Below are positions 61,181 through 64,000 of a stretch of 64,000 nucleotides of DNA, piece by piece. A model generated the notes under the pieces. That model searched no databases. It was not told the DNA's origin and saw only the letters and a list, made by a program, of their open reading frames with translations. This stretch comes from a virus (lineage: Duplodnaviria > Caudoviricetes), in IMG/VR virus record IMGVR_UViG_3300028591_000131, positions 1 through 64,000 of that record. The stretch is one strand, 5' to 3'. The first letter of the stretch is position 1. Each line of letters starts with the position of its first letter. The position numbers and the translations under genes are program-made.

Positions 61181-61426
61181 TCATTGCTCACTACATCGAA
61201 AACCAGCCGTGCTATCACATGTAATTGTAAATGGTCTACCCCAATCTTTAGGACAATTTATACAATCTTTATGTGGGTTTGTACAAATACCATTTGGAGC
61301 ATAACACGGTACATGCCAAGTTTCAGGATATGGACCGAATGCAGCAAGCTGATCTGATAAATCACGTTCTGCAAGCAATTCAGCAAGACGTTCCTTGCTT
61401 AACTTTAAATAATCTTCTTTACGCAT
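61181..61426 (-). CDS. Small Cys-rich protein
   Basis: YLKLSKERLAELL...PCY.P.G.CTNP..DCINCP; own promoter. Confidence 0.65.
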   Translation of the reverse strand: MRKEDYLKLSKERLAELLAERDLSDQLAAFGPYPETWHVPCYAPNGICTNPHKDCINCPKDWGRPFTITCDSTAGFRCSEQ

Positions 61427-61450
61427 ATGTTTGAATTTAAATTATCAAGT

Positions 61451-61460
61451 TGCAAAGATA
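61451..61460 (-). promoter_or_regulatory. Bacteroidota promoter (-7 box)
   Basis: TATCTTTGCA. Confidence 0.75.
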
Positions 61461-61472
61461 CTAAAATATTAT

Positions 61473-61667
61473 TTACAACCTACCAGTCTTTGTACCAATT
61501 CTACTTTCATCAAATTTTGTTTTTATAGATCCCAAAAGTCTTTTTACATGCGGTAAATCGTTTTGAGATATATAAAAATCCACCACAGTGCGAAATTCTT
61601 CGCTGGTTAGTGCATTTGCTGGTTTACAAAGCAAATAATTTAATCTATTCAAATCGTTTTTGTTCAT
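61473..61667 (-). CDS. Hypothetical protein
   Basis: 64 aa, AT-rich leader, own promoter. Confidence 0.55.
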   Translation of the reverse strand: MNKNDLNRLNYLLCKPANALTSEEFRTVVDFYISQNDLPHVKRLLGSIKTKFDESRIGTKTGRL

Positions 61668-61691
61668 AACTTTAGATTTTAATTATTGAGT

Positions 61692-61701
61692 TGCAAAGAT
61701 A
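61692..61701 (-). promoter_or_regulatory. Bacteroidota promoter (-7 box), first of the late strand
   Basis: TATCTTTGCA. Confidence 0.75.
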
Positions 61702-61873
61702 CGAAAAATTTTTTAATTTTTAAAATTTTTTATTTTTTTTTTTGAAAACTTTGTGGTTGTTAGGGAGAAGAGAATAATGTAGCGACATCCGGGAGGTGTC
61801 TTGGTGTGTGGGTGCTATCCCCATACATTAAGCGTGAAAAAAACATTAGTACAAACCAATTAAATTAACAATT

Positions 61874-62245
61874 ATGAAATTAGTAGATTTCATTAGCGCA
61901 GCAAAAAAATTCAACCATTTCACGGACGTTTGCGATGAGTCGGAAATTGAAAAAATTGTATCTATCATTTCCAGACCTTACGCAGCGTTTACAACTAAAA
62001 ACGGGCAAAACGTCCCAGCTGGTATTAGCTATCAATTAGCTACAAAAGAGGGCGCGTTTAAAGTGAAGTGCACCGAAAAAACTTTCAATGCTTTTGTGTG
62101 TTTAGTTAATAGTAATATTCCGAATACGGAGTACAAAAAGTATGTTACATTGACACATTTTGAGGGCAAAAATGCAGACGGTGAGGAATACGAAGTAAAT
62201 ACATTCACTTGTATTTACAATCCCATTGAGGAGCAGGCTGAATAG
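61874..62245 (+). CDS. Hypothetical protein, first gene after the strand switch
   Basis: 123 aa, AT-rich leader, followed by a terminator. Confidence 0.7.
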   Translation: MKLVDFISAAKKFNHFTDVCDESEIEKIVSIISRPYAAFTTKNGQNVPAGISYQLATKEGAFKVKCTEKTFNAFVCLVNSNIPNTEYKKYVTLTHFEGKNADGEEYEVNTFTCIYNPIEEQAE

Positions 62246-62261
62246 CCTGTTCCCCTTTTTT
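62231..62261 (+). terminator. Intrinsic terminator
   Basis: GAGCAGGCT-GAAT-AGCCTGTTC followed by CCC-T6. Confidence 0.75.
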
Positions 62262-63250
62262 GGGTTAACTGCAGAGCTAGATTAATTTTTTTAACTTTGT
62301 AGTTGACCTAGTTCACGCTTTATTATCCACTTAGATTAAATTAGTCTCGTCTTGGTGGTGTTAACAACAGAGGCTAAGCAATTATTTATTGTGAGGTGGA
62401 ATTTGACGTGTCGTATGACCTTTGAGTGCTGGTGAAAACCCAAGCTCGTCAAATTACAGAGGTGGTTTGGGTCGCACCCAAGGTAACAATAAATAATTGT
62501 TTAAGTTGTTGAGAATGAGAGAGATGATAATAACTCACCATCTCTCTCACTTCCCAGCAATTATCCCCAATTAAAATTGCTAACGTAAAAGTATTAGCAA
62601 TTTTGGGGATATTAATTTTATTAAAAGGTTGTGGATTGTCCTACAAAATCCTCATTAAGTTACTTTCATTTTGTATTGACCTTGTGAGCTTGCTCCCATC
62701 GTTAACCTGCTCTCATTATTAAGCCGATAATGAATGGAGTCGGTAAAACTCTCTGCAACATCAGGGAATTTGGCAATAATCCATCAGTTAGGCTACAGTA
62801 GCTGATGCACGTATTGTTTAATTCTCTGATGCCAAGTAATATGATTTTCTAGACATTTAAAATTATCTGTGGCCTATGTACTGGTATAGAAAATTCCATA
62901 ATCCTGTGACGACAGGTTACATGCTGATAACACTATTGATTTGCAGCAATAGTTGTGATAAGCATTGTAAGTTATCAATGTTCTGCAAGCATTGATAACG
63001 AAAATTATCCTCTGGGTGAGACAGACGTGTCTTGCATCGCGACCAGAGGATTGTGTAATGTGGCTCGTCATTTGATGAACGGTTCCAAGCCCGTATAAAT
63101 ACAGAGGACACAATAAAAAACTCAATATAAAATATCCTTGTGGAGTTGTGGGGTAACTGCGTAAAACAGAGGATTTCCAAGATGTTGAGGACGCCAGTTT
63201 CTTATAGAGACTATAACAAATTAAGCTTGTGATCTTATGATAATAAAACA
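62261..63250 (+). ncRNA. Candidate large structured non-coding RNA or structured leader
   Basis: No credible ORF. At least 10 adjacent long stems, with imperfections mostly G-U on the plus strand (e.g. 62261-76/62295-310, 62376-92/62486-502, 62759-70/62820-31, 62971-82/62988-99). Confidence 0.65.
63050..63114 (+). ncRNA. Twister ribozyme, type P1
   Basis: P1 ATTGTG/CACAAT; U^AA; P2 TGTG/TACA; T2 GCT/AGC; P3 TCAT/ATGA; P4 ACGG/CCGT with loop TTCCAAGC; ATAAA; GAGGA giving T1 TCC/GGA. Matches the twister consensus element by element. Confidence 0.88.
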
Positions 63251-63337
63251 TCTTGTTATTATAAACTGAGTGTGGTAAGGTAAACAATTGATTTGTTGTA
63301 CTATAAGTTTTAGGCGTAAAACACAAAAATTAAAATT

Positions 63338-63835
63338 ATGGATATCTCAAAAATATTAAAAAAATGTCCCGCTGGGACAAAATTATATTCTCCTATATTG
63401 GGAGATTGTTTCCTAAGAAAGGTATCTGCAAACGGAATTGTAGTAACACATATATTAGATCCATTGCGTGAATATCAATTCACAATAGATGGAAAATATA
63501 CTGTGGTAGGAAATATTCCAACTGCAGAGTGTGTATTATTTCCATCTAAAGAAAATAGTGATTGGTCAACATTCCAACAATCTAGGTTAGCAGAATACTC
63601 TACAGAAGAATTGCGTAAAGAACTTAAAAGACGTAATACTGAAGAAAAGGCATTACGTCAAAAAGAGTTCGATTCTGCACACAGATGTAGAAATTGTAAG
63701 TTCTTTGAACTAGAACCAAATACAATATTTGGTAGTCATATTTGCGCTGCTCGTACATGGGGTAAAAACATTAAACGACATTATGTCGTAAATGGTTCCC
63801 ACGGTGTGCAATGTAAAGAATTTGTTCATAAATAA
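63338..63835 (+). CDS. Hypothetical early protein with C-terminal Cys cluster
   Basis: ILK.CP.GTKLYS.I.G...EC.LFPSKEN.DWS.F domain, then CRNC..F...C...C. Confidence 0.75.
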   Translation: MDISKILKKCPAGTKLYSPILGDCFLRKVSANGIVVTHILDPLREYQFTIDGKYTVVGNIPTAECVLFPSKENSDWSTFQQSRLAEYSTEELRKELKRRNTEEKALRQKEFDSAHRCRNCKFFELEPNTIFGSHICAARTWGKNIKRHYVVNGSHGVQCKEFVHK

Positions 63836-63844
63836 AAAATAGAT

Positions 63845-64000
63845 ATGTATTTCTTAATTGGGATTAAAAGCCTATTTTCAGACAGCATAGATGTATTGGA
63901 TCAAGATCCATCATATGATGTATTAGCTAGAATTAAACGTGTAGCTGATATGACATTGAAATCAGATGATCCATATGTTATGAAATACAAACGTCTTGAA
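63845..64000 (+). CDS. Hypothetical protein (runs off the right edge)
   Basis: ATG 10 nt after the previous stop; open to the window end (MYFLIGIKSL...). Confidence 0.55.
   Translation, partial: MYFLIGIKSLFSDSIDVLDQDPSYDVLARIKRVADMTLKSDDPYVMKYKRLE

Follow-up and report, generated by a model that had tools for sequence, protein, structure and literature searches.

Positions 63052-63112 of the window (the whole stretch of DNA analysed here, 64,000 nucleotides, or bases 1-64000 of a 103-kb virus record in IMG/VR with a genome of 103,184 bp) make up, as read from the sequence, a complete type-P1 twister ribozyme on the strand of the downstream genes. It is quite probable that this twister is functional: it is predicted to cleave, and the chief conserved role that we infer for it is to form the 3' end of the RNA upstream of it and to insulate that RNA. 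The Rfam twister-P1 model (RF03160), with which an earlier note on this DNA had proposed to check its reading of the site, aligns end to end with the plus strand at 63052-63112 (model 1-68 of 68) and scores 56.4 bits, below the gathering cut-off of 67.2 bits, which is an annotation rule and not a property of the RNA. The E-value is 7e-12 in a search of 801 nt and 2.1e-13 in a search of the 103,184-bp genome, of which this is the sole twister. The elements that the earlier note had placed in order at 63050-63114 are all present by direct reading, as follows.

63052..63112, plus strand: type-P1 twister, full RF03160 match, with P1 extendable to 63050-63114
63052-55 with 63109-12, plus strand: stem P1, from the RF03160 alignment and RNAalifold
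63056..63057, plus strand: predicted scissile U^A bond, aligned to model U5-A6
63059-62 with 63100-03, plus strand: stem P2, three Watson-Crick pairs and G63062-U63100
63059..63103, plus strand: region enclosed by P2, holding the 5' GC of T2, P3, P4 and loop L4
G63063-C63090 and C63064-G63089, plus strand: pseudoknot T2, two G-C pairs, complementary by direct reading
63065-69 with 63074-78, plus strand: stem P3, short, including a G-U pair
63079-82 with 63091-94, plus strand: stem P4, from the RF03160 alignment and RNAalifold
63083-90, plus strand: loop L4, from the RF03160 alignment
U63084-A63108, C63085-G63107 and C63086-G63106, plus strand: pseudoknot T1, read directly
G63104, plus strand: conserved guanine, first G of GAGGA, by direct reading

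The stems described as essential in twisters, P1, P2 and P4 (PMC5408937), are all found at 63052-63112, P2 with four base pairs, and the strands of both predicted pseudoknots are complementary. In known twisters, T2 joins the conserved GC of L2 to L4, and T1 consists of three Watson-Crick pairs between L4 and L1 (PMC5408937). The coordinates given earlier for T1 (UCC 63084-86 with GGA 63106-08) and for the U63056/A63057 site are correct on direct reading. For T2, the two G-C pairs (GC 63063-64 with GC 63089-90) stood and the third proposed pair, U63065-A63088, did not, because U63065 pairs with A63078 and closes P3 in both the RF03160 alignment and RNAalifold. The order of elements is that of type-P1 twisters (RF03160, clan CL00120; PMC5408937, PMC6154101): P1, U^A, P2, the GC of T2, an optional P3 and P4, an L4 loop with CCAAGC, then UAAA, P2', GAGG and P1', with two pseudoknots and a cut 5 nt into the motif. 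Unlike the typical RF03160 member, the phage-typical subtype found here has U-A for C-G as the third pair of T1, and a short P3. In the RF03160 alignment, the unpaired consensus nucleotides are complete (UAA, GC, GGU.CCAAGCCC, UAAA and GAGG); the three departures from consensus all fall at paired positions (model pairs 10-57, 14-34 and T1 40-64), and each is a C-G to U-A double change compensated by the partner. When 471 nt of context are folded, the minimum-energy structure keeps the helices of the twister between flanking hairpins (z -4.5).

Twister cleavage yields a 2',3'-cyclic phosphate and a 5'-OH (PMC5408937, PMC8782182), and in the rice twister the cut site is U6-A7 and the guanine named is G45 (PMC6154101). 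By analogy, after cleavage at 63056/57 the upstream RNA would end in ...UGUGU carrying a 2',3'-cyclic phosphate, and the downstream RNA would begin at A63057 with a 5'-OH. G63104 would then be the general base or catalytic guanine; it is presumably the counterpart of rice G45, which we take to be the first G of GAGGG.

A default Rfam gathering scan of the whole window returned no match, and the twister appears only in E-value mode. Other phage twisters with the UUCC/GAGGA pair behave in the same way (10/10 at 47.4-65.7 bits, all below 67.2), and the subtype as a whole spans 47-66 bits over 11 cases, all under the RF03160 cut-off. It is the curated cut-off, and not the sequence, that accounts for the shortfall of the score at 63052-63112. 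Among twister-like cases in IMG/VR, a UUCC loop occurs with GAGGA in 51/52 and a UCCC loop with GAGGG in 14/14, so that the third T1 pair covaries in 65/66 phage twisters and the U-A pair represents true covariation. Of the 86 IMG/VR stretches that contain a 16-mer around L4 with UUCC, the majority are clearly twisters. Because the U-A subtype lies under the Rfam cut-off, routine annotation undercounts phage twisters.

The genome that carries the ribozyme was earlier assigned to a crAss-like phage, which is borne out by PHROG matches to crAss-type terminase, portal and head proteins and by a major head protein 64-66% identical to those of Steigviridae (crAss001, cr111_1, cr106_1 and cr112_1). 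The genome also has giant ORFs of RNA-polymerase size (1887-2465 aa). The structural and polymerase-sized genes run leftward from ~61.7 kb and the opposite arm runs rightward from 61874; the twister lies ~1.2 kb into the rightward arm, after a 123-aa ORF, a terminator-like hairpin and an ORF-free stretch. The surrounding features are as follows.

61874-62245, plus strand: 123-aa ORF, preceding the terminator-like hairpin
62230..62263, plus strand: intrinsic-terminator-like hairpin and U run, left bound of the non-coding stretch
62625..63051, plus strand: conserved, ORF-free structured RNA, preceding the twister in every twister-bearing relative
63008..63050, plus strand: stable hairpin abutting the twister (CCUCUGG...CCAGAGG, inner stem with a GACG cap)
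63118..63337, plus strand: structured leader, ending in a conserved pre-start motif at 63302-63327
63338..63835, plus strand: gene 63338, 165 aa, the first sizeable downstream gene, with 65 homologues and no family assigned

Relatives were found by way of the 165-aa downstream protein, whose 65 homologues led to the contigs examined. A blastn search of 62300-64000 against a phage collection gave no match, and a search of IMG/VR with the 165-aa protein gave no relatives. The terminase led to seven IMG/VR fragments, of which five were scanned without finding a twister; these are 6-27% complete and may miss the site. Syntenic twisters were detected by Rfam in the relatives L100, L101 and L103/L104 (57.5-61.6 bits). 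In L189, P3 is expanded by ~50 nt; the Rfam scan missed this twister owing to the long insert, and it was accepted on its sequence and correct fold. There are thus five twister-bearing loci, with four distinct sequences, all in the same place. The differences among their twisters keep the pairing: G-U pairs become A-U or G-C (G63062-U63100 of P2 is G-C in relatives), a pair is added, or the P3 stem is wholly new. RNAalifold recovered P1-P4 unguided on the clade alignment, and the core is near-invariant over five lineages in which the flanks have been swapped. No twister was found at the homologous junction in L105 and L107, in the shorter upstream sequence of L099, or in the named Steigviridae crAss001, cr111_1, cr106_1 and cr112_1. 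Since some relatives have the homologous junction without a twister, the ribozyme is dispensable; judged by these comparisons, it is a clade-specific, optional element.

What precedes the ribozyme is less variable than what follows it. The 62625-63051 block has 82-91% DNA identity among relatives, versus 76-85% for the neighbouring gene, and its hairpins show compensatory and G-U changes; RNAalifold on 62903-63051 plus the twister gave 69 pairs, eight with compensatory changes and one broken. The hairpin at 63008-63050 (about -21.5 kcal/mol) is kept in L100, L101, L103 and L189, where one C-G pair is replaced by U-A and G-U changes are seen, and in L103 and L100 an additional hairpin lies between the upstream block and the twister. 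Hairpins directly against the 5' edge are enriched more widely: in 29 phage twisters, some of them related to one another, the median is -10.9 kcal/mol, as against -4.3 kcal/mol for controls taken simply at random positions (p about 1e-6, Mann-Whitney). The upstream block is constant in all five twister loci, and the downstream sequence differs in 3/4 distinct sequences. Because the upstream ~430 nt are constant and the downstream part variable, the constant partner of the twister is the upstream RNA and not the leader of gene 63338, and by this comparative reading the ribozyme is tied more tightly to that RNA than to the gene. Having a structured RNA rather than a gene as its constant partner draws attention to the formation of the 3' end of a non-coding RNA. 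The RNA at 62625-63051 (as well as 62261-62624) is conserved, ORF-free and structured, with two GACG-capped hairpins, and 62625-63051 matched no Rfam family.

A different role is suggested by the gene side. The twister might mainly trim the 5' leader of the gene 63338 mRNA, giving a 5'-OH, structure-capped message with altered stability or translation, the upstream RNA being discarded; we regard this as possible, if on the doubtful side. It is on the same strand as gene 63338 and 225 nt from the ATG, on many other phage contigs a start codon or Shine-Dalgarno sequence follows a twister by 10-50 nt, and mRNA processing has been proposed as a role in reviews (PMC6765202). The earlier note had the ribozyme separate a structured upstream RNA from an RNA with a ~280-nt leader, which agrees with the 281 nt that a cut at 63056/57 would leave before the ATG at 63338. 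Its tie between the ribozyme and gene 63338 is weak, to judge by the relatives, which have other ORFs, other sequence or a tRNA there: the twister is followed by an 80-aa, 76-aa or 55-aa ORF in three of them and by tRNA-Met in L189, and in L100 and L101 downstream homology ends at the 3' edge of the twister. This downstream partner is not kept while the upstream block is constant, and conservation of the RNA that would be discarded exceeds that of the gene and includes compensatory changes. Among twister-bearing relatives, the leader at 63118-63337 is common to L103/L104 only, and L105 has the same leader and gene without any twister. Type-I hammerheads in L105 and L103 would cleave 24-30 nt ahead of a start codon, a point in favour of leader trimming as such; going by their placement, 5'-end trimming of messages would also occur in this clade, from hammerheads.

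The leader has features of its own. A partial second copy is found at genome 68488-68639. The 26-nt motif before the start codon (63302-63327) is 100% identical in L100, L101 and L102, the overlapping stretch 63304-63333 is 97% identical in L103/L104, and further copies of the motif precede other genes (genome 68627) and follow the tRNA of L189; the motif might act as a signal for translation or processing. As a general promoter, GTAAAACACAAAA was rejected, with only three sites in 103 kb. In L099, a GOLLD-like match (1695-2091, 68.4 bits, E 1e-15, cut-off 150) lies directly downstream of the homologue of the 165-aa gene.

For the reading in which the twister serves the upstream RNA, the following course of events is proposed. 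Rightward transcription would produce a long RNA whose start would lie within the divergent control region around 61.7-62.3 kb or past it. The twister, when all 61 of its nucleotides had been transcribed, would fold P1, P2, P3, P4 and the two pseudoknots and cut between U63056 and A63057. Cleavage in a P1-type twister falls 5 nt inside the motif, so the upstream product would be the conserved structured RNA (at least 62625-63051), with a 3' end made up of the strong hairpin 63008-63050, six nucleotides and the 2',3'-cyclic phosphate. The downstream product would have a 5'-OH and retain the compact body of the ribozyme as a cap-like fold at its 5' end, followed by the leader and gene 63338. The cut would let the non-coding RNA and the message downstream meet separate fates with no protein involved. 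Its main conserved job would be to form the 3' end of the upstream RNA and to insulate that RNA, any change to the downstream message being a by-product or else a second function. We infer cleavage in vivo, the transcript start, the timing and the consequences for stability, and the upstream RNA and the twister might not always be co-transcribed.

In crAss001, an early operon lies at the genome end and the middle genes have replication functions (PMC8375218). An "early region" label for the twister site is plausible, going by position and synteny with crAss001 alone. Sigma-70-type promoter matches were no commoner than in shuffled sequence, and no Bacteroidota-type start could be fixed upstream of the 62625-63051 RNA. 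A repeated GTATCTTTGCAACT motif on the minus strand (61440-61480 and 61680-61700), upstream of two small leftward ORFs, fits as a candidate element the Bacteroidota -7 promoter consensus, TAnnTTTG. Rfam detected no other ribozymes or known RNAs in 61400-62750, and in the rest of the genome the RNA scan returned two tRNAs only. The sole long antisense ORF, at 62874-63326 (150 aa), was rejected as a gene: it has no glutamate and no family match, and relatives have no minus-strand gene calls over the homologous stretch. An intact LAGLIDADG endonuclease ORF is present at genome 65243-65848 (PF03161, E 4.5e-22), and Rfam found no group I intron in that region at E 0.01.

Hammerheads also occur in this clade. 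RAGATH-1 type hammerheads lie in the same arm of relatives L103 (1249-1311), L104 (987-1049), L101 (4630-4694), L102 (2168-2232), L105 (1975-2041) and L190 (695-757), at 53.6-61.1 bits with a cut-off of 56.3; L100 has an apparent hammerhead remnant with its core deleted, and no RAGATH-1 hammerhead was detected in this window. In L103, a hammerhead and the twister bracket about 575 nt, and this bracket is the basis for a further reading, in which the twister would be dedicated to forming the 3' ends of structured non-coding RNAs (~430-800 nt) that make up an unclassified family in one crAss-like clade. The two ribozymes of L103/L104 would then free a near scar-free RNA with a 5'-OH and a 2',3'-cyclic phosphate, ends that RtcB-type ligases of the host join, and so defined or even circular. 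We advance this tentatively and consider it unlikely; if true, it would mean a defined or even circular phage RNA made entirely by ribozymes. A 403-aa RNA ligase is encoded outside the window (genome 94109-95320, plus strand; PHA02142 OB-fold plus RNA_ligase domain, phrog_968), and it was rejected as a sealing partner for the ribozyme ends because it requires a 5'-phosphate and a 3'-OH. No RtcB, AAA_33 (PNK-type) kinase or TROVE (Ro-type) proteins were found in the genome.

It is quite improbable that the element is kept chiefly as a DNA recombination cassette, or as a regulated switch that works through competing CAGAGG motifs. Mosaic breakpoints do fall exactly at the 3' edge of the twister, and unrelated hairpin-twister cassettes in JGI contigs are identical across differing flanks and occur twice on one contig. 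A recombination role is nevertheless compatible with cleavage, and alone it would not keep the catalytic nucleotides and the compensated pairs. For a switch, CAGAGG occurs three times within 130 nt (63044-49, 63102-07 and 63167-72), yet the context fold retains the active secondary structure, the upstream hairpin forms before the 3' half of the twister is transcribed, and no ligand- or protein-binding element was identified. More improbable still is that the site only resembles a twister, by decay or by chance, and has lost its cleavage activity: the score under the gathering cut-off, the G-U pair in P2, the short P3 with its G-U pair and the unremarkable fold energy of the twister alone (z -0.85) speak for it, and are outweighed by the E-value of 7e-12, a conserved core that has lost no nucleotide and is near-invariant in five lineages with swapped flanks, and the ten of ten other phage twisters of the same subtype that are also under the cut-off.

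The crAss-like phage twister is a fresh example of a ribozyme class already known, in a type of setting also known, and not a new class. Twisters next to phage genes have already been described (PMC6765202, PMC8782182, PMC5408937), and the role of bacterial and phage twisters is an open question (PMC5408937, PMC6765202). Like the twisters and hammerheads reported near phage-type genes, the present one lies between small phage genes, with a function that is equally unproven (PMC6765202, PMC8782182, PMC5408937). The clustered ones recur at many junctions between genes; this one is present once per genome, in a crAss-like (Crassvirales) phage, and always accompanies one conserved structured RNA of ~430 nt. 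In this genome a ribozyme bounds the non-coding RNA at its 3' end only, whereas L103 also has the hammerhead ~575 nt upstream. A literature search brought up no description of a twister in a crAss-like phage. With an uncultured gut phage and a ribozyme class already known, the gain is incremental; a clean natural comparison is offered by close crAss-like genomes in which this junction holds a twister, has a hammerhead close by or lacks any ribozyme.

Twisters were also seen in other settings. The JGI metagenome contigs L109-L125, found by a pattern scan, carry identical hairpin-plus-twister cassettes ~20-30 nt before start codons, with mosaic flanks on both sides and two copies on L122. These were rejected as relatives of this crAss-like phage, being a different and unrelated family, and the cassette looks like a mobile regulatory one. 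On other phage contigs, a twister lies within an array of over a dozen tRNA genes (L023, 5078-5134), and twisters are found near group I introns (L009 and L036).
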